Shown here: in pieces, positions 6,016-60,472 of the stretch | Layout: each line of letters starts with the position of its first letter | How positions within the stretch are numbered: position 1 is the first letter of the stretch | Assembly: GCA_009773155.1 (NCBI GenBank) | Contig: WOVA01000001.1 | Location: 104,035-168,034, forward strand | DNA: 64,000 nt | Direction: 5' to 3' | Source of the DNA: Elusimicrobiota bacterium | Lineage (GTDB): Bacteria; Elusimicrobiota; Elusimicrobia; Elusimicrobiales; UBA9959 | The notes under the pieces: model-generated | Database searches by the model: none | Told to the model about the DNA's origin: nothing | Seen by the model: the letters and a program-made list of their open reading frames with translations, nothing else | Translations under genes and position numbers: made by a program

Positions 6016-7956
6016 ATGATCGAGCTTAAAGGCATCAGGAAAATATACCGTATGGGCGGCGAGGACCTGGAGGTCCTCAAGGGCGTCGACCTTACGGTCA
6101 AAGAGGGCGAGTTCGTCGCCATCATGGGCCCGTCCGGCTCCGGCAAATCCACGCTGATGCACATCCTGGGCCTGCTCGACAGGCCCAGCGCCGGCTCGTT
6201 CAAACTCTACGGCCGCGAGATAAGCGATCTCGACGACGCGGAGCTCTCCTACCTGCGGGCCCGCATCATAGGCTTCGTCTTCCAGCAGTTCAACCTGCTG
6301 CCGCGCATGACCGCCGCGGAGAATACCTCGCTGCCCCAGATCTACCTGGGCGACAAGGTCAACCCCGCGGCGGCGCTCCGGCACCTGGCGGCCGTCGGCC
6401 TCTCCGACAGGGCCGGGCACCGGCCCAACCAGCTTTCCGGCGGACAGCAGCAGCGCGTAGCCATCGCGCGCTCGATGGTAAACGAGCCTCGCATCGTCTT
6501 CGCCGACGAGCCCACCGGCAACCTGGCCTCCGTCCAGGCCGACGAGATCATGAACATCTTCAAGGGCCTCAACGAGCGGGGCATAACCGTGATCCTGGTC
6601 ACGCACGAGCCGGATATAGCCGCCTGGGCCGACCGGACCATCAGGCTGAAGGACGGCCTCATAATCGAGGATACCTCTAAAAAGCCCGCGCCGGAGGGCG
6701 AAGGCAAGCCGGTGAGGGTGCCCGCCAGCTTCTTCCTGACCTGGCGCGAGGTGGCCGAGAACATGGCCTCGTCGGTGCGCTCTATACTCAGCAACAAGAC
6801 CCGCTCGCTGCTGACCATGCTGGGAATCATCATAGGCGTCGGCGCGCTGATCGCCATGCTGGCCGTCGGCACCGGCGCGCAGAAGGCCATAGAGAAGCAG
6901 ATGTCGTCGCTGGGCACCAACCTCCTCTCGGTCATGCCGGCCCGCATGAGCGCCCGCGGCCCGTCCCAGGGCTTCGGCGGGACCAGCCGGCTCACGATGG
7001 AGGACGCCTCCGCACTGGCCCGCCTTCCCAATGTCGTCAGGACCGACTCGCTGGTCTCGGGCAACGCCCAGGTGGTCTACGGGGCCAGGAACCACCGCAC
7101 CTCCGTGGTCGGCGCCGGCGCCGTCTACGCCTCCATGCGCGCGGCGCAGCCTTTCTTCGGCCGCTTCTTCTCCGACCAGGAGGCCCGGCAGATGCGCAAG
7201 GTGGCCGTCATCGGCCAGACCGTGGCCAATGAACTTTTCGGCACGGAGGACCCGGTAGGCAAGACCATAAAGTTAAACCGCCGCAACTTCTCCGTCATAG
7301 GCGTGCTGCCCTTTAAGGGAGCGCAGGGCCCGCGCGACCAGGACGACACCGTCATCATCCCCCTTCAGACGGCGATGAAGACGGTACTGGGCAAGCAGTA
7401 CGTGGATTCCATCTGGGTGGAGATGGCGGATTTTCATCTTATGGGAGAGGCCCAGGAGCGGATCACGACGATGATGCGCCAGCGCAAGGGCCTGGCCGAC
7501 CATAAGGACGACACCTTTATGATCATGAACATGGCCGAGTTCCAGTCCATGCTCACCGGCACTATAAAGACCTTCAGCACGCTGCTGGGCTTCATAGCGG
7601 GCATCTCGCTGATAGTCGGCGGCATCGGCATCATGAACATCATGCTGGTCAGCGTCAGCGAGCGCACAAAGGAGATCGGCCTGCGCAAGGCCATCGGCGC
7701 CACAAAGCGGGCCGTGCTGCTGCAGTTCCTCATCGAGGCCGTGATAGTCTCCGTCATCGGCGGGATGCTCGGCATCGTGGCGGGCGCCGGCGGAGCCCTC
7801 ATCCTCTCCAAAGTCTCGGGGTGGGCCGTCTACATCTCTCCCGGTTCCGTCGCCCTGGCCTTCGGCTTCTCCGCCGGCGTCGGCGTGGTCTTCGGCTTCT
7901 GGCCGGCCAAAAAAGCCTCCGACCTGTCCCCTATAGACGCCCTCCGCTACGAATGA
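6016..7956 (+). CDS. macB: MacB-type ABC transporter, fused ATPase and FtsX-like permease
   Basis: Walker A GPSGSGKST, signature LSGGQQQRVAIARS, Walker B IVFADEPTGNL, and a C-terminal 4-TM FtsX-type permease with a large periplasmic loop. Confidence 0.9.
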   Translation: MIELKGIRKIYRMGGEDLEVLKGVDLTVKEGEFVAIMGPSGSGKSTLMHILGLLDRPSAGSFKLYGREISDLDDAELSYLRARIIGFVFQQFNLLPRMTAAENTSLPQIYLGDKVNPAAALRHLAAVGLSDRAGHRPNQLSGGQQQRVAIARSMVNEPRIVFADEPTGNLASVQADEIMNIFKGLNERGITVILVTHEPDIAAWADRTIRLKDGLIIEDTSKKPAPEGEGKPVRVPASFFLTWREVAENMASSVRSILSNKTRSLLTMLGIIIGVGALIAMLAVGTGAQKAIEKQMSSLGTNLLSVMPARMSARGPSQGFGGTSRLTMEDASALARLPNVVRTDSLVSGNAQVVYGARNHRTSVVGAGAVYASMRAAQPFFGRFFSDQEARQMRKVAVIGQTVANELFGTEDPVGKTIKLNRRNFSVIGVLPFKGAQGPRDQDDTVIIPLQTAMKTVLGKQYVDSIWVEMADFHLMGEAQERITTMMRQRKGLADHKDDTFMIMNMAEFQSMLTGTIKTFSTLLGFIAGISLIVGGIGIMNIMLVSVSERTKEIGLRKAIGATKRAVLLQFLIEAVIVSVIGGMLGIVAGAGGALILSKVSGWAVYISPGSVALAFGFSAGVGVVFGFWPAKKASDLSPIDALRYE

Positions 7957-19278: not shown

Positions 19279-20934
19279 TCACCGGGCGCCTCCGCTGACG
19301 CAGGCGGAATGGCAGGCGCCGTGGCAGGCCGAATGGCAGGCGCTGTGGCAGGCAGAGTGGCACGCGTCGTGACAGGCCGAATGGCACGCGTCGTGGCAGG
19401 CGTCGCGCCCGAAGGCCCCCTCGTAGCAGGACTTCGAGGTCCTGAAGGTCGCGAAATCCAGGGCGGCGGCGTCGCCGAGCGAACCTTTCAGCCCCTCGCC
19501 GACGGCGGCGGAATTATCGTAGCGGCTGTCGTCGAGGCGCAGGAAGCGGCGCCTGTAGCCGCCCCAGTACCAGCCTTGATCGGTCCCGGGGCCGGCCGGG
19601 ACGTCGGTCTCGGCCTTTTTCCTGTAATAGGCCTTCGTCTCCTCCAGGTCGGCGTCCCAGATCTTCTGCTCCATACCGGCCGCTATGCTTTTGACCATCT
19701 CTTTAAGCGCGGGCTCGTCCACCGAGCCGTCCGGCTTTATGCCGCCGAGCAGCAGCGTCTCGTAAGGATCGTTGCTGGCGTAGATATGCGGCGGCTTGCT
19801 CACGCGCAGCGGGTCGGTGCCGGTTATCTTAACCAGCCCCTTGCGCTCCATGTTGCCCAGTATCAGCGCGCCCAGTTCGATCAGCGGCAGGCCCAGTATC
19901 ACGCCCGCCTCTATGGGGCTGAGGTCCTTTGCCACCTTGCCCGGCTTGCGGAAAGAGCTGACCTGCGCCTTGGGCGGCTCCCATTCGGTGCCCTCCCAGT
20001 TGACCTCCGAGATGCCGGCCTGCGCCACCAGCATGGAATTGTGCTTGCGCGTCATTATGACGAAAGGCAGCACGCCGAAGAAGACGGCGAAGATCAGCGC
20101 CAGGAAGAGGGTCTCGCCGCGGCTGACCGGGACCGTGGCCAGTACGCCGCCGGGAAAATAGCGGCCAAGGTAATAGCTCTCCGGCGCGGCCCTCCAGGGA
20201 CCTTTCGGCGTGCCGGCCAGCAGACCCGCGGAAGCCATCGTCTGCAGATCGAACACGCCGGCGTCCATATAGGTCTGCGTGCGCATGTGGAACTTAGCGC
20301 CGGCGCCCTTCCTGTGATAGCGCACGGTGAACAGCCGCTCGCCGGCCTCGTTGACCGTCTCGGGATAATCGATGAGGTAGCGCTCGTTCACGAATTTTTC
20401 GGTCATGAACGAGAGACGGGCCGCCGCGGCCTCGCCGGTCTCGCCGGGACCGAGCGGCACGGGATAGACGACCTTCACCGTCATATGCTCCAGCGGCTCG
20501 TCCCACTGCACCGGCGACCAGTTGAAGACCGCCAGGCGCCTGTCGCCGGCCATGGTCTGGGTCAGCGTGCCGGCGGCCTGAAAATCCGCCGTGTAGCGGA
20601 AGAAGAAGGTAATGTCGCCGCCGCCGAACCCGCGGCCGCCGGCCAGGACGATATCGTACTTGCGGCCCGACAGATGGCTTATGTCCAGGCTGTAGCGCTC
20701 GCCGCGGTCGTCCACGGCGTAGGCGCCCGCGCGGTCGAACAGCGGCGGCTCGGCCGCGCCCTCGAAGTAGAAGGCGTGTATCTCGCGCCCGGTCACGCCC
20801 CAGCGCACTGTATAGGCCACCTGGCCGCGCCCGTCGCGGTCCAGGACCACCTCGGTCTCGGTCCATTTAAGGTCGTAGCCGGCCGACGCCAGAGAAGGCA
20901 GGCAGAATAACAGGCAGAAAATCAGTTTTTTCAT
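19279..20934 (-). CDS. Signal-peptide/TM protein (DUF2207-like architecture) ending in a C-terminal (Ala-Cys-His-X)x8 repeat tail
   Basis: Start at MKKLIFCLLFCLPSLASA (ATG 20934, GAGGGG upstream). One clear TM helix (LFLALIFAVFFGVLPFVIM then RKH). LSPIEAGVILG...MERKGLVKI region. C-terminus is GRD-ACHD-ACHS-ACHD-ACHS-ACHS-ACHS-ACHG-ACHS-ACVSGGAR. Confidence 0.75.
   Translation of the reverse strand: MKKLIFCLLFCLPSLASAGYDLKWTETEVVLDRDGRGQVAYTVRWGVTGREIHAFYFEGAAEPPLFDRAGAYAVDDRGERYSLDISHLSGRKYDIVLAGGRGFGGGDITFFFRYTADFQAAGTLTQTMAGDRRLAVFNWSPVQWDEPLEHMTVKVVYPVPLGPGETGEAAAARLSFMTEKFVNERYLIDYPETVNEAGERLFTVRYHRKGAGAKFHMRTQTYMDAGVFDLQTMASAGLLAGTPKGPWRAAPESYYLGRYFPGGVLATVPVSRGETLFLALIFAVFFGVLPFVIMTRKHNSMLVAQAGISEVNWEGTEWEPPKAQVSSFRKPGKVAKDLSPIEAGVILGLPLIELGALILGNMERKGLVKITGTDPLRVSKPPHIYASNDPYETLLLGGIKPDGSVDEPALKEMVKSIAAGMEQKIWDADLEETKAYYRKKAETDVPAGPGTDQGWYWGGYRRRFLRLDDSRYDNSAAVGEGLKGSLGDAAALDFATFRTSKSCYEGAFGRDACHDACHSACHDACHSACHSACHSACHGACHSACVSGGAR
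19300..19401 (-). repeat. Tandem 12-bp coding repeat (about 8.5 units) encoding ACHX tetrapeptides
   Basis: Plus-strand periodicity gcaggcNNaatg/gtg is visible across 19300-19401. Translates on the minus strand to ACHDACHSACHDACHSACHSACHSACHGACHSAC. Confidence 0.9.
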
Positions 20935-20986
20935 CGTACCCCTCGCCGGCTGGAACGGTGCCGCATTTTTCATATAATATAAAAAC

Positions 20987-21081
20987 GGGACGCTGATTAC
21001 TAAATGATTAATTATGCACAGGCACGGATCCCGTCTTGAGCGAAGACCAGAGGGAATTAATCATTTAGTAATCAGCGTCCC
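20987..21081. repeat. AT-rich hairpin element, copy 1: perfect 27-bp inverted repeat with 41-nt loop
   Basis: Left arm gggacgctgattactaaatgattaatt (20987-21013) is the exact reverse complement of 21055-21081. TATAAT lies at 20973-20978 just upstream, and SD GGAGG plus ATG 21099 lie just downstream. Near-identical copy at 60387-60472. Confidence 0.9.
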
Positions 21082-38025: not shown

Positions 38026-40524
38026 CTATTTCTTTTCTTCGACCGCGACCTCTCCTTCGTCCACCACCGGCTCCACCGAGGCGATGCGGTCCCCCTCTTC
38101 GAGGCGGACCAGGCGCACGCCCTGGGTGTTGCGGCTGATGACGCGCAGGTCCTTGCAGGGCATGCGGATGATCTTGCCCTTCTCCGTCATCACCATCAGG
38201 TCGTCCCCGTTCTCCACCAGGTGCAGGCCCACGACGTGGCCGTTGCGGTCGGTGGCTTTTATCGTGATGACGCCCGAGCCGCCGCGGTGCTGGTGGCGGT
38301 ATTCGTCGAGGTCGGTGCGCTTGCCGTAGCCGTTGACGCAGACCGTCAGCAGGGTCTTCTTCGACTTGGGCTCGGCGACCTCCATGCCTATGACCTGGTC
38401 GTCCTTGTCCAGGCGGATGCCGCGCACTCCCATGGCCCCGCGGCCCATCGCGCGCACGTCGCTCTCGGCGAACCGGATCGACATGCCCTGCCTGGTGCCG
38501 ATTATTATCTCGTGCCTGCCTTCGGTGTGCTCGACGCTGGTCAGCACGTCGCCGTCCTCCAGGCCGATGGCGCGGATGCCGCTGCGCCGGATATTGGCGA
38601 AGTCGGCGATGGGGGTCTTCTTGATGTTGCCCTTGCGGGTGCACATCACGATGAAGCTCTCCTTGCCCTTGGCCTCTTCGAACGACTCGACCGCGAGCAC
38701 CGAGGTGACCTTCTCGTCCTTTATCTGCAGCAGGTTCACTATCGCCTTGCCGCGGGACGTGCGGTTGCCTTCGGGGACTTCGTAGCCCTTGAGCGCGTAC
38801 ACCGTGCCGCGCGTGGTGAACATCAGTATGGTGGCGTGGCTGGAGGTGACGAAGAGCTTCTCTATGAAATCCTCCTCCTTCACGTCGGAGCCGATGATGC
38901 CCTTGCCGCCGCGGCCCTGCACCTTATAGGTATCGGCCGGGATGCGCTTGATGTAGCCGCCGTGGCTCATCGTGATAACGACGCGTTCCTCTGGGATCAG
39001 GTCCTCGATGTCGAGTTCCTGCGCCTCGCCGGTGATGTCGGTCTTGCGCTTGTCGCCGTACTTCCCCTTCATGTACTCGAGTTCTTCGACGATGATCTTG
39101 AGCACTTTTTTGGGGTCGGCCAGGATGGCGCGGAGCTCGGCGACGAGCTTCATCAGGGCCTTGTGCTCCTCCTCGATGGCGCCGGTCTCCAGGCGGGTGA
39201 GCTGGTGCAGGCGCATGTCCAGGATGGCCTGGGCCTGTATGTCGCTCAGCGCGAACCTGGCCATCAGCTTTCCCTTGGCCTCGAGCGCGTCCTTGGACTT
39301 TTTGATTATCTCCACTACGGCGTCGATGTTCTGGAGGGCTATCAGGTAGCCTTCCAGTATATGGGCGCGGGCCAGGGCCTTCTTAAGGTCGTACCTGGTG
39401 CGGTTGACCACCATCAGTCTGCGGTGGCGCACGTACTGCGACATGACCTCTTTGACGGGCAGCACGCGCGGGCGGCCGTCCACGATGGCCAGCATGATGA
39501 CGCCGAAGCTGGTCTCCAGCTGCGTGTGCTTGTAAAGCTGGTTGAGCACGACCTGGGCATTGCCGTCGCGCTTGATCTCTATGACGACGCGCATGCCGCG
39601 GCGGTCCGACTCGTCGCGGATATCGGAGATGTCGGGGATCTTCTTGTCCTTGACGAGCTCGGCTATGTTCTCTATCAGCGTCGACTTGTTGACCTGGTAG
39701 GGGATCTCGGTGATAATGATGGCCTCGCGGTTGCCCTTGATCTCCTCTATCTCGGTGCGGGCCTGTATCTTGACGGAGCCGCGGCCGGTCTCGAAGTAAT
39801 CCTTGATGCCCTTGCGCCCGCGGATGATGCCGCCGGTCGGGAAGTCGGGGCCCTTGAGGATCTTCATCAGTTCTTTGACTTCGAGGTCCGGGTTAGCTAT
39901 GACGGCCATGGTAGCGTCGCAGACCTCGGTCAGGTTATGGGTGGGGATATTGGTGGCCATGCCTACCGCGATGCCCGAGGAGCCGTTGACCAGCAGGTTG
40001 GGCAGCTTGGCGGGCAGTACGCTGGGCTCCGTCATGGAGCCGTCGTAGTTGGGGACCCACTTCACGGTCTCCTTCTCTATGTCGGCCAGCAGCTCGCCGG
40101 CGATGCCCGAAAGGCGGGCCTCGGTGTAGCGCATCGCGGCCGCGGGGTCGCCGTCCACCGAGCCGAAGTTGCCCTGGCCGTCCACCAGCGGGTAGCGCAG
40201 GGAGAAACTCTGCGCCATGCGCACCAGCGTGTCGTAGATGGCGGAGTCGCCGTGCGGGTGGTATTTACCCATGACGTCGCCGACTATGCGGGCGGACTTC
40301 TTAAAGGGCTTGTTGTGCTGCAGGCCCATGTCGTCCATGGTGTAGAGCACGCGGCGGTGCACGGGCTTGAGGCCGTCGCGCACGTCGGGCAGCGCGCGGC
40401 CCACGATGACGCTCATCGAATAGTCTATGTAGGACGCCTTCATCTCCTCGCTGATATCGCGGTCGACGATATTGGCGAAGAGGTTGTCCACCGGCTGGTT
40501 CTTGTCGTTCTTGTTGGCTGTCAT
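38026..40524 (-). CDS. gyrA: DNA gyrase subunit A
   Basis: [24 protein letters not shown], the active-site region AAMRYTE, and a C-terminal beta-pinwheel. Confidence 0.95.
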
Positions 40525-40554
40525 TTTAAAACCGTCTCCTTAAAAAAATGGTCC

Positions 40555-44662
<4,108 letters not shown>

Positions 44663-44672
44663 GCCGGGGCCC

Positions 44673-45797
44673 TCACTGCGCGCGCAACGGCATCACTATG
44701 TAGAGGAATTCCTCTCCCTTGACCGGCTTGATAAGGGCCGGGGTGGAGGGAGCGTTGAATTCCATGAGGGCCTTGGCTTCCCCTATATTCCTGAGCACGT
44801 CCATCACGAACTTGGGATTGAAGCTGACCTGCAGGTCCTTGCCCTTGTAGTCGACGTCCGTCTCGTCCTCGAAATCCATGGTCTGGGACGAGGAGTTGAC
44901 TACCAGCACGCCTTTCTTGAAAGTATATTTGACCGCGCCGCTGCGTTCGTTGGAGCAGAGGGAGGCGCGCTTGGTGAGAGCCAGCAGCCGCGCCGTGTCT
45001 ATCTCGACCGAGGTCTCGCGGGTCCTGGGGATGATCTGCTCGTAGGCGGGAAAGTTCCCCTCGATGAGCCTGGAGACGAAGACCGTCTTTGCGATACGGA
45101 ACCCTATCTGGTTGGAGGAGAGGCCCACCGTCAACTCCTCTTTTTCGCCCAGGTCGGCCGCTGTTATGAACTTGACCAGCTCGCCGAGTATCTTGGACGG
45201 CACGATGACCTTGAAATCATTCTTCGCCTTGACTGCCTGGCTGGTGGCGACGGCCAGGCGGCGGCCGTCGGTGGCCACCACCGAAAAAACTCCCTTTTCG
45301 TATTTCCACAGGAGGCCGTTGAGAAAATGCCTCTCGTCCTCGGCGGCGATCGAGAAGAGGGTCCGCGACACCATATCGGCTATGAGGGAGGCGGGAGCTT
45401 TGAAGGAATTGCTTTCGTCCAGGTCGGGGATCACCGGGTAGTCGGCCTTGGGCGCGCCGCTGATCTTGAACCGGGTCTTGCCGGAGAGGATGGAGACCTT
45501 GTTGCCGTCGTCCACGTTCACGTTCACGTCCGCGTCGGGACCGAGGTTCTGTATTATCTCAAGGAACTTCTTTATAGGGACCGTTATGCTGCCGTCCCCC
45601 TTCACCTCCACGTTTATGTGGTGCTTTATGGCCATCTCGAGGTCGGTGAAGACGACCCTGAGACCCTGGTCCTCGGTCTCCATCAGGAAGTTCTGGAGTA
45701 TGGGCAGGGTCCCCGTCTTGGCCGAGACGCCGGCCTGGATGGTCTGTATTCCCCTGATGAGGTTCTCCCGGTTACTATTTATTTTCATCATCATCAT
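44673..45797 (-). CDS. dnaN: DNA polymerase III beta sliding clamp
   Basis: 374 aa with the three-domain clamp pattern (ILQNFLMETEDQGLRVVFTDLE...). Immediately downstream of dnaA. Confidence 0.95.
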   Translation of the reverse strand: MMMMKINSNRENLIRGIQTIQAGVSAKTGTLPILQNFLMETEDQGLRVVFTDLEMAIKHHINVEVKGDGSITVPIKKFLEIIQNLGPDADVNVNVDDGNKVSILSGKTRFKISGAPKADYPVIPDLDESNSFKAPASLIADMVSRTLFSIAAEDERHFLNGLLWKYEKGVFSVVATDGRRLAVATSQAVKAKNDFKVIVPSKILGELVKFITAADLGEKEELTVGLSSNQIGFRIAKTVFVSRLIEGNFPAYEQIIPRTRETSVEIDTARLLALTKRASLCSNERSGAVKYTFKKGVLVVNSSSQTMDFEDETDVDYKGKDLQVSFNPKFVMDVLRNIGEAKALMEFNAPSTPALIKPVKGEEFLYIVMPLRAQ

Positions 45798-45900
45798 CCT
45801 CTATATATAGCCTGTTAATTCTGTTGAAACTGTTGAAACCATCGGGGGAAGTTCTCCTCCTCCCGCCAAACCGGACTGACAATCTTAACAATGGCCGCCT

Positions 45901-45909
45901 TTATCCACA
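45901..45909 (+). promoter_or_regulatory. Perfect DnaA box TTATCCACA in the dnaA-dnaN intergenic region
   Basis: Exact 9-mer 5 nt from the dnaA stop codon. The adjacent direct repeat ctgttgaaa occurs twice at 45823-45840. Confidence 0.7.
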
Positions 45910-45913
45910 GCTT

Positions 45914-47284
45914 TTACTTGTTGCTGACAGACTTTATCTTGGTTATCAAGGTGTTCACCAGTTCGTTGATGAAGAGGTCGGTGTGCACCATATTCTGTAT
46001 CTTATTGCGCGCGTAGATGACCGTGGTGTGGTCCTTGCCGAAGGCGTCCCCCACGTTGGTGGTGGACAGTTCCGTCAGTTCGCAGGCCAGGTACATCGCG
46101 ATCTGGCGCGGCACCACCACCGAGTCCCGGCGCCCCTTGGAGCGCAGGTCCTTGGTGTCGAGCTGGTACTTCTCGGCCACTACGCTTATTATGGTCTCTA
46201 TGCTGATCTTGTCCCCGTCGTCCTGGTTTATACCCATGTGGTCCTTGATTATCCCGCGGACCACGTCTATGGTGGGCTGCAGCCGCATGTTCATGCAATA
46301 GTTGCCGACCGTCAGCAGGCAGCCGTCGAGTTCCCTGATGCTGGTCTTGACGTTCTCGCCTATGAAGTTGACGACGTCGTCGGGTATCTCGAACTTGTAC
46401 TGGTCGCGCTTCTCGCGCAGGATGGCGATGCGGGTTTCCAGGTCGGGCTGCTTCATGTCGGCTATGGTGCCCGAGAGGAAGCGGGAGACCAGGCGCTGGG
46501 CCAGCGAGAGTTCGCGGGGCGGCCGGTCGGAGGTGACCACTATCTGTTTCTTGGATTCGAACAGCGCGTTGAAGGTGTAGAAGAACTCCTCCTCGCTGCG
46601 CTCCTTGCCCATCAGGAACTGTATATCGTCGAGCAGCAGGCAGTCGAGCTTGCGGTACTTGCCGCGGAAGAGTTCGGCCGAGTTGCTCTTGTTCTGTATG
46701 GTGTCGATGTACTCGTTGACGAAATTCTCGCTGGGGGTGTAGATCACCTTGGCCGCCGGGTTGAGGCGCAGTATCTCGTTGGCTATGGCGTGCATCAGGT
46801 GGGTCTTGCCCAGGCCCGGCGGGCTGTAGATGAAGAAGGGGTTGGAGAGGTGCCCGGGTTTCTCGGCCACGGCCTTGGCCGAGTTGTAGGCCCAGCGGTT
46901 GGACGGCCCCACTATGAAGGTCTGGAAGGTGTAGTTGGGATTGAAGGACGAGTGCGCGGCGGCCTGGGGCCTGGATGCCGGCGCGGCCTGGATCTCGGGC
47001 TGCGGGGCGGGCCGGGGCTCCCTGGGGGCCAGCGAGAGGGAATAATCTATCTTATAGTCTTTACCGGAAAGTTCCGAAAGGGCGCGGATTATCACTTCCT
47101 CGTAGCGCTTTTTAATGGTTTCAAATATAAGAGGGTCGGGCACTTCCAGTTTGACCGTATCGCCCTCGATAACAAGCACCGAGACCGGCCTCATCCAGAG
47201 GTCGAAAGGGTCCTTGCCTATTTCCTGCTCGATTTTGACGCAGGCGTTCTGCCAGAGTTCTTTGCTGTTTATTGAGTTATCCAC
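45914..47284 (-). CDS. dnaA: Chromosomal replication initiator protein DnaA
   Basis: Walker A GPPGLGKTHL, box VII/sensor motifs, and a C-terminal DNA-binding domain (PRQIAMYLACELT...FGKDHTTV). GTG start at 47284. Confidence 0.95.
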   Translation of the reverse strand: MDNSINSKELWQNACVKIEQEIGKDPFDLWMRPVSVLVIEGDTVKLEVPDPLIFETIKKRYEEVIIRALSELSGKDYKIDYSLSLAPREPRPAPQPEIQAAPASRPQAAAHSSFNPNYTFQTFIVGPSNRWAYNSAKAVAEKPGHLSNPFFIYSPPGLGKTHLMHAIANEILRLNPAAKVIYTPSENFVNEYIDTIQNKSNSAELFRGKYRKLDCLLLDDIQFLMGKERSEEEFFYTFNALFESKKQIVVTSDRPPRELSLAQRLVSRFLSGTIADMKQPDLETRIAILREKRDQYKFEIPDDVVNFIGENVKTSIRELDGCLLTVGNYCMNMRLQPTIDVVRGIIKDHMGINQDDGDKISIETIISVVAEKYQLDTKDLRSKGRRDSVVVPRQIAMYLACELTELSTTNVGDAFGKDHTTVIYARNKIQNMVHTDLFINELVNTLITKIKSVSNK

Positions 47285-47296
47285 AACTTATCCACA
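47277..47296 (+). promoter_or_regulatory. Two perfect tandem DnaA boxes (TTATCCACA x2) at the dnaA start
   Basis: ttatccaca at 47277-47285 and 47288-47296, in the same orientation, 2 nt apart. Confidence 0.8.
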
Positions 47297-47553
47297 AGTG
47301 TTAATATCGCGGTGTTTTGACTGAAAAACGTATATAAAATAAGCGTTTTATTTGTTAATTATGCTTTCAGGGCTTGACTTAGCAAGACTTGATCAAAAAA
47401 CGCAAAAAGACCCGGTTTTTCCCTGTGCAAAGACGATTTACGGTAAGGAAAATATTACCTTAAATACATAGAGTGTGTCAACAGGGGCCGGAAAATCAGG
47501 CAGGCGCTTTTTAAAGGCAGGCTGAAAGCCCCTTAAAAGGGGCCCGGATGGCT
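47285..47553. other. Putative chromosomal replication origin (oriC) with AT-rich unwinding region
   Basis: Largest non-coding, strongly AT-rich island in the window (for example aaaaacgtatataaaataagcgttttatttgttaattatgc), immediately upstream of dnaA and abutting the DnaA boxes. Confidence 0.7.
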
Positions 47554-54295: not shown

Positions 54296-55179
54296 GCAAT
54301 AAGGGAGACCTGCGGAACGTCCCTATCTTCCGGAACTTCACCGACGAGATGCTCGCCCAGTTCTCGGAGACTTTCAAGCAGTCCTTCTACAAGAAGGACG
54401 AGGTAATCTTCCGGGAGCGCAGCGAGGGAGACACGCTGTTCATCATCGTCTCGGGCTCGGTGACCATAGAGAAGAAGCTCGACGACGAAGGGAAGGCCTT
54501 TAAGACGCTGGCGATACTGAGCGCCGGGGAATTCTTCGGAGAGATGGCCGTGCTCGAGGGGCAGACCCGCTTCGCGCAGTCCCGCGCCGAGACCGACACC
54601 GTGCTCTACGAGGTGAGGAGGACGGAGTTCTTCGGCTTCATAAAGGACCACCCGGACAACGGCATCTCCATCTTCACCGAGATCATGAAGTCCGTGCTGC
54701 GCCGCCTGCAGCACACCTCCAGCGAACTGACCATGCTCTACGACATGAGCAAACTGGTGCTGCGCGAATACCGCTCCTCGCGGGAGTTCCTGGCCGAGGT
54801 GCTCGACGAGGTCTACACCCATTTCGAAGGCAGCTGGAACATCAGCGTGTTCGCCTACAACCAGTTCAACGAGGAGTTCGACGAGGCCGGCACCCGCTCG
54901 ACCTTCGACGAAGCCCCGGAAAAACTGGCGGCCGCGCCGCCGGAGGAGAGCGCCTGGACCGCCCCTAACGCCTATGTGGTCGTTTTCAGGGGGCACAAGG
55001 GCCCGCTGGGCTACATGCGCTTCGCCAGGCCGGCCGATTTTACCGACACCGAGAAGAACTCGCTGTCCACTATATTCGGCACGCTGTCCTCGATAATCTC
55101 CTCGGCGGTGGAGAATATCGAACACCAGGCAGAGGCGGCGCTAATGCGGAAGCTCAAGGAGCAGAAGGACACCATATGA
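54292..55179 (+). CDS. Cyclic-nucleotide-binding domain protein with uncharacterised C-terminal domain
   Basis: ATGA overlap with pilT. CAP_ED pattern VPIFRNF...GEFFGEMAVLEG...R.A... Confidence 0.75.
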   Translation: MSNKGDLRNVPIFRNFTDEMLAQFSETFKQSFYKKDEVIFRERSEGDTLFIIVSGSVTIEKKLDDEGKAFKTLAILSAGEFFGEMAVLEGQTRFAQSRAETDTVLYEVRRTEFFGFIKDHPDNGISIFTEIMKSVLRRLQHTSSELTMLYDMSKLVLREYRSSREFLAEVLDEVYTHFEGSWNISVFAYNQFNEEFDEAGTRSTFDEAPEKLAAAPPEESAWTAPNAYVVVFRGHKGPLGYMRFARPADFTDTEKNSLSTIFGTLSSIISSAVENIEHQAEAALMRKLKEQKDTI

Positions 55180-55715
55180 ACGACAACAAACTCAGATTCA
55201 GGAAACTGGCGGCGGCCGCCGCCCGGCTGGCCGACTCAAAGAAAGCCGCCGACGTAAAAATATACGACATAGCCAATAAGTCCGACGCGGCCTATTTCGC
55301 GCTGCTCTCCACGGTGGAGTCGCAGCCGCAGATGAGGGCGGTCGAGGACGAGATCTCGGTGGAGCTCAAGCGCGTCGAGGGAGTTCACGCCCTGCACCGC
55401 GACGGTCTGCTGAGCCGCACCTGGAAGGTCATCGACTACGGCGGCCTCGTCGTGCACGTCTTCGAGCCCTCCGCCCGCGGTTTCTACGCGCTGGACAGGC
55501 TCTACGAGGACTGCGCCCTGGTGGACTGGCAGGATAAACCCGCCAGCAAGCCCGCGGCGAAGGAAGTCCCGGCGAAGAAAGCCACGGCGAAGAAAACCCC
55601 GGTTAAAAAAGTTTCGGTCAAAAAGGCCGCGGTCAAAAAAGCCGCCCCCCGGCCCGTCGCAGAGCTCCGGGCACCGACCGCGGCGAAAGCCGCCCTGATC
55701 CGGAAAAAGAAATAG
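55176..55715 (+). CDS. rsfS: Ribosome silencing factor RsfS with Lys/Ala/Pro-rich C-terminal extension
   Basis: Core YFALLSTVESQPQMRAVEDEI...WKVIDYGGLVVHVF...FYALDRLY. From residue 121 onward, KPASKPAAKEVPAKKATAKKTPVKKVSVKKAAVKKAA... Confidence 0.8.
   Translation: MNDNKLRFRKLAAAAARLADSKKAADVKIYDIANKSDAAYFALLSTVESQPQMRAVEDEISVELKRVEGVHALHRDGLLSRTWKVIDYGGLVVHVFEPSARGFYALDRLYEDCALVDWQDKPASKPAAKEVPAKKATAKKTPVKKVSVKKAAVKKAAPRPVAELRAPTAAKAALIRKKK
55649..55703 (+). repeat. 55-nt GC-rich structured repeat, copy A (inside the 3' end of rsfS)
   Basis: ccggcccgtcgcagagctccgggcaccgaccgcggcgaaagccgccctgatccgg. 51/55 identical to copy B by my manual alignment. Confidence 0.85.
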
Positions 55716-55716
55716 C

Positions 55717-57378
55717 ATGAGGCTGCGCGCTCTTGAAGACTCTCTCCGGGAGAGCGCCGGCCGCGCCTTCGGACTGACCCGGGAAGAACTCTCCTCGCTG
55801 GCCGTGGCGCCGCCGCCCGGCCATATCGACGCCGACGCCTCCGTGTCCTGGCCGATCTCGGCCGCCAAAACACTGCGCAAGCCGCCGCTGAAAATAGCCG
55901 AGGAACTGAGGGACGCGCTGCCGCCGGAACTCGCGGCCGGCGCCGTGCCCCCCGGCTTCGTCAACCTTAAGCTGGCCGACGGCTTCCTGCTGGATTCCCT
56001 GCGCGACATAACGGAGAATCCCTCCTATTTCCACCGGCCTGAATACGCGGCCGAGCATATCAATCTGGAATTCGTCTCAGCCAACCCCACCGGGCCGCTG
56101 CACCTGGCCTCGGGCCGCGGCGCCACGCTGGGCGACAGCCTGGCCCGCATCTTCCGCGCGCTGGGCGCGAAGGTCTCGGAGGAATTCTACGTCAACGACA
56201 AGGGCCGGCAGGTGGAGATGCTGGGTCTTTCGCTCAAGGCGCGCTTCGAGGGCAAGGATCCCCCGGAGGACGGCTATCACGGCGACTATCTTAAAGACCT
56301 AGCCGCCGGCGCGCCGGCGGACGCCGCGTCCTGGGACGCCCCGAAGTTCTCGGAGTACGCGATTACGGAGATGCTCAAACTCCATAGGGCCGACATGGCG
56401 GCCTTCCGCGTGGAGTTCGACCGCTGGTTCCTGGAATCGGAACTGCACGCGGCCGACGCCCCGGCGAAGGCCCTCTCCGGGTTGCGCGCCCGCGGCATGG
56501 CCTATGACAAGGAGGGCGCCGTCTGGTTCGGCGCCGCCTCGGAACTGGAATCAGACGACAAGGACCGCGTGCTGGTCAAATCCGGCGGCGCCAACACCTA
56601 TTTCCTCAACGACATCGCCTACCACCTCGACAAACTCTCGCGCGGTTTCACGCGGCTGATAGACGTCTGGGGGGCGGACCATCACGGTTACGTGCCGCGC
56701 ATGGAGGCCGCCGTCGGCGCGCTGGCCGGCCCGTCGCAGAGCTCCGGGCACCGACCGCGGGCAATGCCGCCCTGTTCCGGCGCGACAGAGAAGTTCAAGG
56801 TGGTGATCCACCAGCAGGTGGCGCTCAAGCGCGGAGCAGAGCTGGTCAAGATGTCCAAGCGCGCCGGAGAGTTCATCCCGCTAAAGGAACTCGTGGACGA
56901 GGTGGGGACCGACGCCTGCCGCTTCTTCTTCGCCTCGCGCGGCCCCAACACCCATCTCACCTTCGACGTGGACCTGGCCAAGAAGCGGTCCAACGAGAAC
57001 CCGGTCTTCTACGTTCAGTACGTGCACGCGCGCATCAGTTCCATCTTCGCCAACGCGGCGGAGAAGGGCGTGGACCCGGCCGCCGCTTTCGATCCCGCGG
57101 CCGTGAAGTTCAACCCCGAGGAGCGGGCGCTTGCGATGAAGCTGCTGTGGCTGGAAAAAACGCTCTCTGACTGCGCGCGGGACTATTCCCCGCATCACCT
57201 GACCACCTACCTGACGGAACTGGCCTCGCTGTTCCATTCTTTCTATGACAAACACAAGGTGCTCGATCCGCAGACCCCGCAGGTTACGGCCTTCCGCCTT
57301 TTCCTGCTGGAGGCCGTGCGCAAAGTCATAGCCGACACGCTGGGCCTGCTCGGCGTCTCGGCTCCCGAGCGGATGTAG
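55717..57378 (+). CDS. argS: Arginine--tRNA ligase (carries an in-frame repeat insertion)
   Basis: SANPTGPLHLASGRG (HIGH-type) and the VKMSKRAG (KMSK) motif. 553 aa. Confidence 0.95.
   Translation: MRLRALEDSLRESAGRAFGLTREELSSLAVAPPPGHIDADASVSWPISAAKTLRKPPLKIAEELRDALPPELAAGAVPPGFVNLKLADGFLLDSLRDITENPSYFHRPEYAAEHINLEFVSANPTGPLHLASGRGATLGDSLARIFRALGAKVSEEFYVNDKGRQVEMLGLSLKARFEGKDPPEDGYHGDYLKDLAAGAPADAASWDAPKFSEYAITEMLKLHRADMAAFRVEFDRWFLESELHAADAPAKALSGLRARGMAYDKEGAVWFGAASELESDDKDRVLVKSGGANTYFLNDIAYHLDKLSRGFTRLIDVWGADHHGYVPRMEAAVGALAGPSQSSGHRPRAMPPCSGATEKFKVVIHQQVALKRGAELVKMSKRAGEFIPLKELVDEVGTDACRFFFASRGPNTHLTFDVDLAKKRSNENPVFYVQYVHARISSIFANAAEKGVDPAAAFDPAAVKFNPEERALAMKLLWLEKTLSDCARDYSPHHLTTYLTELASLFHSFYDKHKVLDPQTPQVTAFRLFLLEAVRKVIADTLGLLGVSAPERM
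56726..56788 (+). repeat. 55-nt GC-rich structured repeat, copy B (in frame inside argS)
   Basis: ccggcccgtcgcagagctccgggcaccgaccgcgggcaatgccgccctgttccgg plus cgcgacag. Translated as ..GPSQSSGHRPRAMPPCSGAT.. between conserved ArgRS blocks. Confidence 0.85.
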
Positions 57379-57724: not shown

Positions 57725-59704
57725 TCACCTGAAGTCCGTCACCCCGTACTCGCCGGGTCGCAGCCCCCCGGTCCGGCCGTCCGGCAGGGTGAACTGGGTG
57801 TATTGCCGGGTAATGTTCCCGATAACGGCTTTGGCGCGCCCGGGATAAGTGGAGGAGCGCATCACATAGCCCGTCCAGGTCTGTCCGCCCGGAGCCCAGA
57901 GCGGCTCTATAGTATAGTCGCCCAGTTCCTTCCTGACCGAGGCCGAAAGGGACAGTATCTCCTGGTAGGTCTTCCTTACCTCCGGCTTGCCGCCCTGCCA
58001 GTCTATGGCGCAGGGTACGCTGAAAGGCAGAGGTTTATGCTCGGCGGGCACGGCGGCGTCGTAGCCGATCTCGGCGCCGTTGTACATCAGCGTCGAGCCG
58101 GGATAGAGGAAGGTGAGCGCCAGGGCGGCCGGCAGGCGCTCGCCGTAGACGCGCTCGGGAGCGGGCTCGTCGTGATTGCCCGTGAAGGCCACGGCGCCGG
58201 CGCCGCCCGACTGCCAGGCCAGGAAGGCGAGCCTGTTCATCGCGCTGGCCAGCTCATGAGGGCTGCCGTGCTCCATCGCCTGGTACCAGCCGGTCTGGCC
58301 TTCTTCGCGCCCGGTCTCGAACTTGCTGTATATCACGTCGAAGCCGCAGGCGGAGAGGTCTTCCTGGAAAGAGTAGGCCTCGGCCATGAAGGCGGTCGAA
58401 GGCTTGGCGGCCTTGACCGTCCCTATGAGGCCGCGGTAGAATTCGTCGCGCGGCATGGTCCGGCCCCAGGTGCGGCCGAAGACATTGTTGAGGTCCAGGT
58501 GCGCCATATCCACGCGGAAGCCGTCCACGTTGAACTTCGTCACCCAGCCCTTGACTATCTCCGTCATCCTGGCGCGCAGTCTGACGTTGGAATAATCAAT
58601 CTGCGCGGTGTCTATCCAGTCGGAGACGCCGCCGCCGTACCAGAAGCCGCCGTGGTGGATGCACCAGCGCTCGCCGCCGTGCCGCTGCTCGAAATGCTGG
58701 TTAGGGCAGGCGCCGGACGGCCGCCGGTGACCGATGAAGTAGGCCGGATCCTCGAAGAGCAGCTTCGCGTCCATCGAGGTGTGGTTGACCACGAAGTCCA
58801 CTATGACCCGCAGTCCCGCGGCATGGGCGTTCTTCACGAAGCGCCGGAAATCCTCCTCGGTGCCGAGGTCGGGGTTAACGGTGGAATGATCGCTGATGGA
58901 GTACACCGATCCGCCGCCGGTGCCGGTCTGGCCGCGCACGCCTATCGGGAATATACCCATAGGCCAGACCGTGTCGAACCCCATCCTCTTTATCGCATCA
59001 AAGTCGGAGGGGCGGAAATCCCTGAAGAAAACGGTCCCGCCCGCTCCGGACTGGGACTTTACTCCCGCCTCGCGCCGCCCGGCCAGGTTATAGGCACGGG
59101 GGAAGATCTGGTAGACGCGGGCCTTCTTCGCCCAGAGGGAGGCGTCGTAACGGCGCACATTGTCCTGCAGCCCGGCGACGTAATAATCGAGCATCTCGTT
59201 GAGGCGGGCGTTCTTTTCCGCCGCGGGCAGCGTGGAGCCGCCCAGCTCTTTGAGCGCCGAACGCAGCTCGGCGGTCCAGGCCACGGGGGCCAGCAGGGCG
59301 TCGAGGTAACTGAAATAGTCGGGCAGGTGATGGAGGAAGGTGTCCGCGCCGAAGCGGCCCTCGAGCTCCTTTTTGGTCCAGAGGAAGCCCTCCAGCCCCA
59401 CGCCCTGGGCCTGGGTAGTCCAGCCTCCGGGATGGCGGAAGAGAAAGTGGCGCATTTCCGGGGTAGAGCCGTTCCAGGCTCCCGCGGAGAGGACCTGCCT
59501 GGTCTCCAGGAGGAATTCCATCGCCGCCGAATTTTTTTCCGGAGGCCGCGGTATCTCTATGGCCGGCGCCGCGCCGTTGCCGTCGAACAGCGCCGCCGCC
59601 CGCGCGCGCAGCGCTTCCGGCTGCGCCGCCGGCAGGACGGCCGGGAACAGCGCCGTCAGCAGCAGGGCGGGCAGCAGTGGGATTAAAAGGTTCTTTTTGA
59701 TCAT
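57725..59704 (-). CDS. Secreted alpha-amylase-family glycoside hydrolase (GH13)
   Basis: Signal peptide. Conserved regions VIVDFVVNHTS, GFRVDMAHL, AEAY and FTGNHD. Confidence 0.85.
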   Translation of the reverse strand: MIKKNLLIPLLPALLLTALFPAVLPAAQPEALRARAAALFDGNGAAPAIEIPRPPEKNSAAMEFLLETRQVLSAGAWNGSTPEMRHFLFRHPGGWTTQAQGVGLEGFLWTKKELEGRFGADTFLHHLPDYFSYLDALLAPVAWTAELRSALKELGGSTLPAAEKNARLNEMLDYYVAGLQDNVRRYDASLWAKKARVYQIFPRAYNLAGRREAGVKSQSGAGGTVFFRDFRPSDFDAIKRMGFDTVWPMGIFPIGVRGQTGTGGGSVYSISDHSTVNPDLGTEEDFRRFVKNAHAAGLRVIVDFVVNHTSMDAKLLFEDPAYFIGHRRPSGACPNQHFEQRHGGERWCIHHGGFWYGGGVSDWIDTAQIDYSNVRLRARMTEIVKGWVTKFNVDGFRVDMAHLDLNNVFGRTWGRTMPRDEFYRGLIGTVKAAKPSTAFMAEAYSFQEDLSACGFDVIYSKFETGREEGQTGWYQAMEHGSPHELASAMNRLAFLAWQSGGAGAVAFTGNHDEPAPERVYGERLPAALALTFLYPGSTLMYNGAEIGYDAAVPAEHKPLPFSVPCAIDWQGGKPEVRKTYQEILSLSASVRKELGDYTIEPLWAPGGQTWTGYVMRSSTYPGRAKAVIGNITRQYTQFTLPDGRTGGLRPGEYGVTDFR

Positions 59705-60273
59705 TTCCTTCTCCTATTCTTGTTTTCGCCGGCCGCTCGCAGAGCTCGCGGCACCGACTGCGGGCAATGCCGCCCTGTTCCGGCGGACAGCGCCAGCAGG
59801 AACAGCCAGTCCGACAGCCTGTTGAGCAGGACGGCCGGCCCTTTCGCTTTCAGCTCCCAGCATAAGATCTCGCAGACGCGCGCCTTGGCCCGGGCCAGGT
59901 GCAGCGTGGCCTCCACCGGGTTCCCGCCGGGCAGCACGAACCTGGCCGGCGGTTTTACCGTGAGAGAGAGTTCAGCCCCGGCCTTTTCAAGGCCGGAGGT
60001 CAGTTCCCGCAGTTCGCCGCCGTTCTTCATCCCGGCGATGTTCGCCGCCGCCTCCGACAGGGCGGTCTGCGCCCGGGCGAGGGCCGCCCTTTCAAAACCG
60101 CCGGCCTTCACCAGCCCCAGGAGGCAGGAGAGCTCGTCTATAAGCGCGTTGGCCTTTATGCGCGGATCTGTCTTGGGTACCCGGCGGCCGGCCAGGAGGT
60201 CCGTGAGGCCGCCGTCACCGGAGCCCCTCGCCGGCTTGAAAGATCTTTGCATTTTTACGCCGCCTTTAACCAC
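59701..60273 (-). CDS. PduO-type ATP:cob(I)alamin adenosyltransferase with repeat-derived C-terminus
   Basis: GDGGLTDLLAGRRVPKTDPRI, FVLPGG and LNRLSDWLFLLA motifs. The last ~25 residues (GTGRHCPQSVPRALRAAG...) are encoded by the reverse complement of repeat copy C. Confidence 0.8.
   Translation of the reverse strand: MVKGGVKMQRSFKPARGSGDGGLTDLLAGRRVPKTDPRIKANALIDELSCLLGLVKAGGFERAALARAQTALSEAAANIAGMKNGGELRELTSGLEKAGAELSLTVKPPARFVLPGGNPVEATLHLARAKARVCEILCWELKAKGPAVLLNRLSDWLFLLALSAGTGRHCPQSVPRALRAAGENKNRRRK
59729..59790 (+). repeat. 55-nt GC-rich structured repeat, copy C (antisense within the 3' end of the adenosyltransferase gene)
   Basis: ccggccgctcgcagagctcgcggcaccgactgcgggcaatgccgccctgttccgg plus cggacag. 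50/55 identical to copy B, with paired dinucleotide swaps that keep a 5-bp stem. Confidence 0.85.
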
Positions 60274-60386
60274 AGTATAAGAGTGTAGCGCGGGCCGGGC
60301 CGGAAAGTCAGTGTCCGGGGACCCAGGAGGGACCCGGAAAAAGCACCAGCCCGGTCTGGGTCCAACGGCCCAATTGGTATAATTAG

Positions 60387-60472
60387 GGGACGCTGATTAC
60401 TAAATGACTAATTATCCACAGGGGCAGTCTTCACCGCAGGACCGTAATTAGTCATTTAGTAATCAGCGTCCC
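60387..60472. repeat. AT-rich hairpin element, copy 2: perfect 28-bp inverted repeat with 30-nt loop
   Basis: gggacgctgattactaaatgactaatta (60387-60414) is the exact reverse complement of 60445-60472. Extended -10 TGGTATAAT ends at 60383. SD AAGGAG at 60474-60479. Confidence 0.9.

Follow-up and report, generated by a model that had tools for sequence, protein, structure and literature searches.

The subject of this report is a short repeat that lies in frame within the arginyl-tRNA synthetase (ArgRS) gene of an Elusimicrobiota bacterium. The gene is found on a 64,000-nucleotide (nt) stretch of contig WOVA01000001.1 (positions 104,035 to 168,034 of the forward strand; GenBank assembly GCA_009773155.1), which as a whole is called the window in what follows. 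The repeat is a DNA unit of 51 nt that is mobile, or at least repeatedly copied; its insertions are in-frame and tolerated, and a hairpin within it is under selection. The family to which it belongs very likely consists of very small, non-autonomous mobile ('selfish') repeats that are confined to a clade of the Elusimicrobia. The window has a guanine-cytosine (GC) content of 64% and its proteins match those of metagenome-assembled genomes (MAGs) of the Elusimicrobiales.

The insert in arginyl-tRNA synthetase

Across the insert the ArgRS protein reads ...GALAG-PSQSSGHRPRAMPPCSG-ATEKFKVV... and a clean gap of 17 columns stands opposite PSQSSGHRPRAMPPCSG in every one of the 24 ArgRS orthologues that were aligned, from a first set of 14 and a further one of 11, including two (P0001 and P0002) that are 91-92% identical to the window enzyme. 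The ArgRS of another close relative (L025) spans the site as GALAGAKDKFRV, and the best solved relative, the Campylobacter jejuni enzyme (PDB 3fnr, E = 1e-83), has the same gap, with only a short loop at the position of the insert. Of the 120 database relatives listed for the window ArgRS, all except three of 554-562 amino acids are shorter, mostly at 533-536. From the orthologues the empty site can be reconstructed as ...GCC GG^C GCG..., encoding GALAGAK, where ^ marks the point of insertion. The filled site consists of CTGGCCGG, the 51 nt, which end in TTCCGG, and CGCGACA. The CCGG that flanks the unit resembles a direct repeat of 4-5 nt; the G with which it ends (56729) is part of the first pair in the stem described below. 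Within the shared CCGG(C) the phase of the insertion can be placed only to about 5 nt; the similarity between copies appears longer than 51 nt because the target already held CCGG(C), which also ends the unit. The original prediction, which had been made from the letters of the window and its open reading frames (ORFs), had described an insertion of about 55 nt and 19 residues at this place; the repeat is indeed there, with a corrected size of 51 nt and 17 residues (56730-56780). Its expectation that the segment is lineage-specific, and that other enzymes have only a short loop before the strand preceding the KMSK motif, agrees with the alignments and with the structure of 3fnr.

An AlphaFold2 model of the enzyme, built on an alignment of 15 sequences, has a mean predicted local distance difference test (pLDDT) score of 86.9 and a predicted template modelling score of 0.88. 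Residues 340-357 are the sole long stretch with a pLDDT below 50 and are modelled as coil without secondary structure, between a helix (326-337) and a strand (360-365) and upstream of KMSKR (378-382). According to the model, the insert is a disordered loop between the last helix of the Rossmann fold and the strand before KMSK. The insert is presumably translated and the enzyme left functional. Some Elusimicrobia ArgRS proteins, among them P0049 and P0068, have about 10 unrelated residues (WAESANFGGPF) inserted in their N-terminal domain.

Copies in the window and their empty sites

The 56-nt core of the ArgRS copy (copy B) occurs exactly once in the window, with 0 occurrences expected in shuffled sequence. 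A repeat search of the window gave a single family, whose three direct copies A, B and C (55648-55705, 56725-56782 and 59728-59785) have 88-91% identity. An nhmmer profile built from these copies recovers them with E values of 1e-17 to 1e-19 and finds no further copy in the 64 kb. All three fall within 4.14 kb, for which P is about 0.012 under uniform placement, and the copies of the window are therefore locally clustered. It had been claimed that each of the three lies in coding sequence and is read in a different frame or orientation. The coding location holds, as does the difference in frame and sense, and the empty sites could be verified; the DNA orientation is the same (+) for all three, and the antisense reading of copy C follows from the minus-strand location of its host gene.

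At copy A the filled protein ends ...KKAAP[RPVAELRAPTAAKAALI]RKKK*, where the closest relative (L021) has the empty form ...KKAAPARKKK*, encoded by ...GCCCGG^AAGAAGAAGTAG (GCCCGG^AAGAAG). The host of copy C ends ...LALSAG[TGRHCPQSVPRALRAAG]ENKNRRRK*. Two syntenic loci, L004 and L015, are empty at this site, with the DNA TCGCCGG^CGGACAG, and their adenosyltransferases end ...LALSAGDDTGRKR and ...LALLAGGKRGGKK (...SAGDDTGRKR* and ...LAGGKRGGKK*). The reverse situation is found upstream of a NifU-like gene, where the window is empty and both L004 (5547-5603) and L015 (5471-5548) carry a copy of the element. Together with copies A and B this makes four independent presence/absence polymorphisms, each of exactly one 51-nt unit.

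A gyrA-gyrB-dciA-dnaN-dnaA cluster occupies 38026-47553 on the minus strand of the window. The 270-nt gap upstream of dnaA (47285-47553) and a dip in GC content (0.58 at 44-48 kb) suggest a chromosomal replication origin; copies A to C lie 8-12.5 kb to the right of this putative origin, all three in the same orientation.

Architecture of the unit and selection on its hairpin

The unit can be written (GG)CCNN-TCGCAGAGCTC-NNGGC-ACCGACN-GCGG-N6-CCGC-CCTGNTCC(GG). Its length is a multiple of three, it is free of stop codons in all six frames, and it encodes peptides rich in Gly, Pro, Ser, Ala and Arg; these properties would allow the unit to persist inside genes. All six reading frames are used among real coding sequences, so the peptide is not the selected object. 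Only three copies carry an indel, one in L006 (-1 nt) and two in L007 and L015 (L007:4271-4346 and L015:5471-5548), in which the loop of the second hairpin is expanded by 21-22 nt. All three belong to the group that appears to be non-genic, and there are 0 indels among the copies placed in genes.

In an alignment of 28 copies the 11-nt segment TCGCAGAGCTC is invariant and lies between GCCNN and NNGGC, which form the 5-bp stem 1. The NN positions occur as CG/CG, GG/CC, GC/GC, GT/AC and AC/GT, and whole-arm variants (GCGGC/GCCGC and GTCGC/GCGAC) are also found. In total 99.3% of the cells of the stem are paired, with double compensatory changes at 4 of the 5 pairs (19 cells), no single-sided changes and no G-U pairs, a pairing score reached by 0 of 500 shuffles. 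When the partner column was slid by one or two positions, pairing fell to about 40%, and when slid by three it was 52-60%. The covariation of stem 1 demonstrates selection on a nucleic-acid hairpin. A second hairpin, GCGG-N6-CCGC, is plausible from the sequence of the copies, without covariation support. A long-range helix between NNGGC and the 3' GCCNN was also considered and rejected: it is 77% paired, weaker than stem 1, and more readily explained by the beginning of a following unit or by homology in the target.

Genomes of 43-67% GC hardly differ in the unpaired segments ACCGAC and CCTGNTCCGG, a pattern of conservation that fits a protein recognising both the sequence and the structure of a nucleic acid. 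DNA is favoured over RNA as the recognised form since wobble pairs are missing and both orientations relative to transcription occur. A search of Rfam with the repeat returned no match, either above the gathering threshold or at E <= 10.

Distribution and host genes

When GTDB genomes, one for each species (596 Gb), were scanned for exact matches to the pattern, 19 loci were obtained, all of them in seven Elusimicrobia MAGs and none in any other taxon. A metagenome collection provided three further contigs, one of which duplicates a MAG locus, and a sequencing run provided one more; viral contigs gave 0 matches to the unit. After profile searches of the retrieved DNA, and with the window and the loci L020 and L025 included, there are 33 copies in total. 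The repeat is hence dispersed, as had been expected, and mostly inside genuine genes: from ORF inspection and Pfam matches about 23 of the 33 copies lie within real genes, several of the N-terminal cases hinging on the choice of start codon, and about 10 are upstream of genes, intergenic or ambiguous. The repeat thus does occur elsewhere, and no unrelated ArgRS orthologue was found to have a homologous segment at the position of the insert. A search of a set of 5.8 billion proteins with six concatenated peptides, which is insensitive for matches of 17 residues, gave a single match, the RsfS protein P0121. Full-text searches of the literature gave no report of such elements in Elusimicrobia.

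The host genes (Table 1) include a second ArgRS, which is only 57% identical to that of the window and in which the element occupies another site and has the opposite sense. Tandem units occur in L003 and L025, where they give rise to 17-residue protein repeats, and L017 contains one unit plus about 20 nt of a second. Several copies each are present in L019, L011, L007 and L015, and copy A is 98% identical to the copy in L001.

The flanks of one of the UvrA copies (L011:6320-6420) form an inverted repeat, GGGGACACCA...TGGTGTCCC, around the unit. A different GC-rich and hairpin-rich in-frame insert of about 125 nt (...GRRHSLPACRSLGAGRRHLWVGWHSARH...) is found in the cobalamin adenosyltransferase gene of the 43%-GC groundwater MAG (L020:6626-6750), which may host several families of coding insert. 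Comparison of the GC-rich islands of the 43-45%-GC loci L003 and L020 showed no further repeat family in common.

Table 1. Coordinates of the 51-nt unit, its parts, its targets and its host genes. Positions without a locus prefix refer to the window.
Feature	Position	Strand	Description
ArgRS gene, host of copy B	55717..57378	+	553 amino acids, intact ORF; KMSKR at residues 378-382
Copy B, 51-nt unit	56730..56780	+	CCCGTCGCAGAGCTCCGGGCACCGACCGCGGGCAATGCCGCCCTGTTCCGG; encodes residues 339-355, PSQSSGHRPRAMPPCSG; sense, frame 1
Target left of copy B	56726..56729	+	CCGG, which also closes the unit at 56777-56780
Hairpin 1 of copy B	56729..56749	+	Stem GCCCG/CGGGC (56729-56733 with 56745-56749); 11-nt loop TCGCAGAGCTC (56734-56744)
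Putative hairpin 2 of copy B	56757..56770	+	GCGG-GCAATG-CCGC; 4-bp stem nearly invariant, loop variable
RsfS gene, host of copy A	55176..55715		Pfam match to RsfS
Copy A, 51-nt unit	55653..55703	+	In Lys-rich C-terminal tail of RsfS; encodes RPVAELRAPTAAKAALI; sense, frame 0
Left target of copy A	55649-55652		CCGG
PduO-type cobalamin adenosyltransferase gene, host of copy C	59701..60273	-	Pfam Cob_adeno_trans; insert in C-terminal tail
Copy C, 51-nt unit	59733..59783	+	Stem variant GC/GC; antisense peptide TGRHCPQSVPRALRAAG
Left target of copy C	59729-59732		CCGG
Empty site upstream of NifU-like gene	60380..60395 (approximate)	+	...AACGG^CCCAATTGGTATAATTAGG (CCCAATTGG)
Radical SAM/SPASM gene	L003:3428-3584		Three perfect tandem units, period 51; Pfam
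UvrA gene	L011:6345-6399 and 6775-6827		Two copies in two different frames; Pfam
RsfS gene of another relative	L025:875-984		Two units in tandem, elsewhere in the tail
ArgRS gene of 43%-GC groundwater MAG (P0111/L020)			Element at a different site, opposite sense, ...AGRHCPQSVPRALGAA...
Further hosts			FabA-like protein; amidohydrolase (dihydroorotase-like); M42 peptidase; PurQ-like amidotransferase (GATase_5); class-V aminotransferase; HhH-GPD glycosylase; UPF0164 protein; aldehyde dehydrogenase (Aldedh); NhaC-type Na+/H+ antiporter; molybdo-hydroxylase; MltA; SpoU methylase (all Pfam)

Ends, targets and a possible route of movement

The left flank of the unit always reads ...GG, mostly as CCGG or CGG. 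At the four verified sites with a confirmed 5' flank the insertion follows ...GG^, in three cases CCGG^; the targets are GCCCGG^AAG for copy A, GGCCGG^CGC for copy B, CGCCGG^CGG for copy C and AACGG^CCCAAT for the L004/L015 site. The target of the L025 site is ...^CCCGCGG, where the empty orthologue confirms the 3' flank alone. When these five sites are compared with orthologous sequence, the targets are seen to have 4-8 nt in common with the end-to-start junction of the unit (TCCGG|CCNN). In about 13 of the 28 aligned copies the right flank, after ...TCCGG, repeats the unit's CCNN, its own stem variant included, and at the L025 site this homology pre-existed in the target, since CCCG is present in the empty orthologue. 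Stem 1 requires a G before the unit and is complete only across a junction between two units, as in a tandem or a circle, or if the unit is phased as GGCC...TCC. A hairpin that lies across the junction, together with inserts of exactly one period and perfect tandems, suggests integration at sites that resemble the element's own joint.

The mechanism envisaged for the non-autonomous mobile repeat is as follows. One unit, at times two or three in tandem, would be added at short ...(C)CGG^(C)... targets. Insertions into surface loops and termini would persist as in-frame additions of 17 residues, and disruptive ones would be purged. The hairpin and the conserved single-stranded motifs may serve as recognition features for a trans-acting enzyme that works on folded single-stranded DNA, candidates for which would be a transposase of the HUH, IS200-IS605 or RAYT (REP-associated tyrosine transposase) kind, or a recombinase acting on a junction form. 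An enzyme acting on a folded single strand is preferred because it would explain the conserved loops, the covarying stem, the missing terminal inverted repeats and the end-like target. In a bolder form of the proposal, which is quite unlikely, a single-stranded circle or junction form, with the hairpin over the end-to-start joint, would recombine site-specifically with CCGG/GGCC-like targets matching its stem variant by means of an enzyme of the Elusimicrobia. The unit would then be an integration module of autonomous appearance, smaller than any other known; carried to its extreme, the proposal would have the ribosome bypass untranslated inserts in essential genes between the matching flanking codons, in the manner of T4 gene 60.

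A number of observations count against a mobile element of this kind. No terminal inverted repeats were found beyond the palindromic CCGG, and the direct repeats of 4-8 nt that flank the unit are identical to its own junction and covary with the stem variant. There is no clear target-site duplication separable from the ends of the unit, and the classical hallmarks of cut-and-paste transposition are thus missing. Pfam searches of the 48 likely genes of the window identified none for a transposase, integrase, recombinase or HUH protein. Tblastn searches of about 250 kb with IS200 TnpA and the Escherichia coli RAYT gave only E values above 0.3, a weak test that used approximate queries and covered a small part of any genome. 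The orientation of copies is mixed within 2.5 kb in L019 and L007, contrary to a strict replication-strand bias of the IS200/IS605 type. Folding of each copy as a single RNA sequence, on both strands, gave z-scores of -0.4 to +0.4, no better than shuffles; support for the hairpin comes from covariation alone, because single-sequence folding is uninformative in GC-rich DNA. Moreover, translation of the ArgRS insert and activity of the enzyme are assumptions made from the sequence, and the pattern scans were exact-match scans of MAGs. In separate analyses, left-only or right-only halves of the unit, which might mark a longer parent element flanked by them, were sought and none was convincing, and GC skew across the window gave no usable replication-strand signal.

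Alternative explanations

The main rival is that no dedicated enzyme exists and that the unit has spread by template switching during replication, or by microhomology-mediated copying. A nascent strand ending in ...CCGG would re-anneal at the CCGG/GGCC junction of another copy, aided by stalling of the fork at the hairpin, copy one 51-nt period and switch back, with tandems arising by slippage. Such a process would account for verified inserts that are all exactly one period, bounded by the 4-8 nt common to target and junction, for a junction homology that varies in length from 4-8 nt to about 20 nt in L017, and for tandems with a perfect period of 51 nt (three units in L003 and two in L025). 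The local clustering of copies, both in the window and in L019, L011, L007 and L015, is in keeping with it, as is the failure to find a transposase among the 48 window ORFs or in the weak tblastn search of about 250 kb. However, passive copying does not readily explain why the unpaired TCGCAGAGCTC, ACCGAC and CCTGNTCCGG are almost invariant across genomes of 43-67% GC whose ArgRS proteins are only 57% identical, nor why stem 1 is kept by compensatory changes, which points to sequence-specific recognition by a protein. Nearly identical subfamilies that extend across genomes, such as copy A and the L001 copy at 98%, also argue against it, and spread by template switching is regarded as rather unlikely.

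The same covarying hairpin, with its strongly conserved loop and linker, could belong to a functional motif selected by the host, namely a binding site or a structured RNA involved in regulation, mRNA stability or nucleoid organisation, whose position within genes would be incidental. Several copies do lie just upstream of genes or at gene ends. Such a motif is nevertheless improbable, given that copies run either with or against host transcription and use all six frames, that the host genes are functionally unrelated and that presence and absence differ among close relatives at one site; the G-U pairs that an RNA helix would tolerate are not observed, and Rfam gave no match. It is highly improbable that the 51 nt are not translated, through ribosomal bypass between matching GGC codons or removal from the mRNA. 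The ArgRS insert does lie between identical codons (GCC GGC / ... TCC GGC / GCG), hairpin 1 starts inside the first GGC, and 51 nt is close to the 50-nt gap of T4 gene 60 (bioRxiv 10.1101/2022.08.31.505936). Yet the take-off codon is followed by CCG rather than by a stop or rare codon, and the unit has a length of exactly 3n with no stop in any of its six frames. Indel copies occur only outside genes, which is expected of a translated unit and unnecessary for a skipped one, and copies in C-terminal tails run straight into the natural stop codon. Least credible is the idea that the insert is a selected peptide module common to several proteins, or an artefact of assembly or chimera formation. 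RPVAELRAPTA... recurs in RsfS, a PurQ-like protein and an endonuclease III-like protein, and GRH(C/S)PQSVP... in seven proteins, but the six frames give six unrelated peptides and conservation is at the level of the DNA. MAGs that several separate studies assembled independently contain the element, as do assemblies from raw reads. Six-frame use and the independent assemblies essentially refute both ideas. Readings of the unit as a CRISPR, a tRNA-like element, an intein or a group I or II intron were rejected, as there are no spacers and no RNA-family match, the length is insufficient and translation occurs in six frames.

Comparison with known systems

The original prediction had seen in the ArgRS insert the hallmark of Rickettsia palindromic elements (RPEs). 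RPEs (RPE-1 to RPE-10; Ogata et al. 2000, 2002) are about 100-150 bp in length with one conserved peptide per family (PMC10969869; PMC3733652). In behaviour the match is good: both are dispersed hairpin repeats found in-frame in numerous genes that have no relation to one another and are often essential, both add a peptide to loops or termini where it is compatible with the fold, and both are confined to one lineage. The location within intact genes is borne out here by the roughly 23 of 33 copies in Pfam-confirmed ORFs and by the comparison of all three window copies (3/3) with empty sites. In contrast to RPEs, the unit is only 51 nt long, uses six frames rather than one peptide per family, occurs in Elusimicrobia instead of Alphaproteobacteria and forms direct tandem arrays. 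The length and the six-frame use thus depart from the definition of an RPE. The term 'RPE-like' describes behaviour only, and by the defining features that were compared, namely size, tag, palindrome and terminal inverted repeats, the unit is outside the RPE and repetitive extragenic palindrome (REP) families.

Intragenic REPs of the GTAG and CGTC types are short GC-rich stem-loops within known genes of several phyla, with uvrA hit twice, and the CGTC REPs have no identified transposase (Di Nocera et al. 2013; PMC3733652). As in-frame intragenic REPs are documented outside Rickettsia, for instance in Opitutus terrae and Thioalkalivibrio (PMC3733652), the claim that such behaviour is rarely reported beyond a few lineages has to be softened. 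A doubly hit UvrA (L011) is likewise found here, and no transposase was identified among the 48 window ORFs or in the weak tblastn search of about 250 kb. REPs are single palindromes of 20-40 bp with a fixed GTAG or CGTC tag and are commonly arranged as inverted dimers, whereas the 51-nt unit combines two short hairpins (one with a stem of 5 bp and a loop of 11 nt, the other, putative, with a stem of 4-5 bp and a loop of 4-6 nt) and forms multimers that are direct only (L003 and L025), never inverted. The unit contains no GTAG/CTAC, and CGTC is limited to the CG stem variant, the others having GGTC, GCTC, GTTC or ACTC, because those bases belong to the covarying stem. Miniature inverted-repeat transposable elements have terminal inverted repeats of about 15-30 bp (PMC3733652). 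The ends of the unit have only the palindromic CCGG in common and lack this feature.

Elements derived from IS200/IS605, such as palindrome-associated transposable elements (PATEs), and the REP/RAYT system have no terminal inverted repeats or target duplication and carry hairpins beside single-stranded motifs. The insertion of these elements beside a short sequence that resembles the element end has a parallel in the left flank ...CGG of the unit, which matches its right end ...CCGG. Unlike them, the unit is far smaller than known PATEs, its orientation is mixed within a few kb at some loci and no Y1/HUH gene was found among the 48 likely window genes or in the weak tblastn search of about 250 kb.

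Bypass elements, represented by T4 gene 60 and the byps of Magnusiomyces mitochondria, have a stop or hungry codon after the take-off codon and need not keep the frame. The 50-nt gap of T4 gene 60 and its origin as a mobile element are described elsewhere (bioRxiv 10.1101/2022.08.31.505936). These elements resemble the unit in being GC-rich, hairpin-forming mobile inserts of about 50 nt in essential coding sequences with matching flanking codons. The two GGC codons at a distance of 51 nt, the first of which contains the start of stem 1, are a consequence of the CCGG flanks. In contrast to bypass elements, the unit is 3n, stop-free and apparently constrained in frame, and from its sequence it is most likely translated rather than bypassed.

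Other features of the window

A perfect AT-rich hairpin repeat, unrelated to the 51-nt unit, is present at 20987-21081 and 60387-60472, with arms of 27-28 bp (GGGACGCTGATTACTAAATGA(C/T)TAATTA) and a loop of 30-41 nt; Rfam gave merely spurious matches to microRNA precursors. The copy at 60387-60472 is in the leader of the NifU-like gene and is largely absent from the syntenic L004 and L015. As only ATCAGCGTCCC is left in L004, it looks like another small insertion element. The gyrB product (40555-44334, minus strand) has 1259 amino acids and contains an intein: residues 457-881, which separate the GyrB and Toprim domains, match Intein_splicing (PF14890). At 19293-19412 there is a tandem 12-nt repeat (...GGCAGGCNNNNT...) with at least six overlapping register copies; the ORF that holds it (19279-20973, minus strand) encodes 564 amino acids without a Pfam match.

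Significance

In-frame selfish DNA within proteins has so far been tied almost wholly to the RPEs of Rickettsia and to scattered intragenic REPs. The 51-nt repeat is an independently evolved and compact case of a 'selfish repeat inside proteins' in a new phylum, and not a new category of system. The Elusimicrobia are a poorly known and largely uncultured phylum, and the repeat has a tidy set of properties: a 3n unit that is stop-free in six frames, verified empty and filled sites, intragenic tandems and one compensating hairpin. In practical terms, the 17-residue inserts should be masked in Elusimicrobia annotation pipelines and in the marker-gene alignments used for phylogenomics. The family also offers a compact system for three problems. 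One is the ability of proteins, ArgRS, UvrA and RsfS among them, to accept random insertions in their loops and perhaps to make use of them. Another is the movement of micro-elements that have neither terminal inverted repeats nor a transposase close by, and the third is the effect of mobile DNA on genomes for which metagenomes are the only source.

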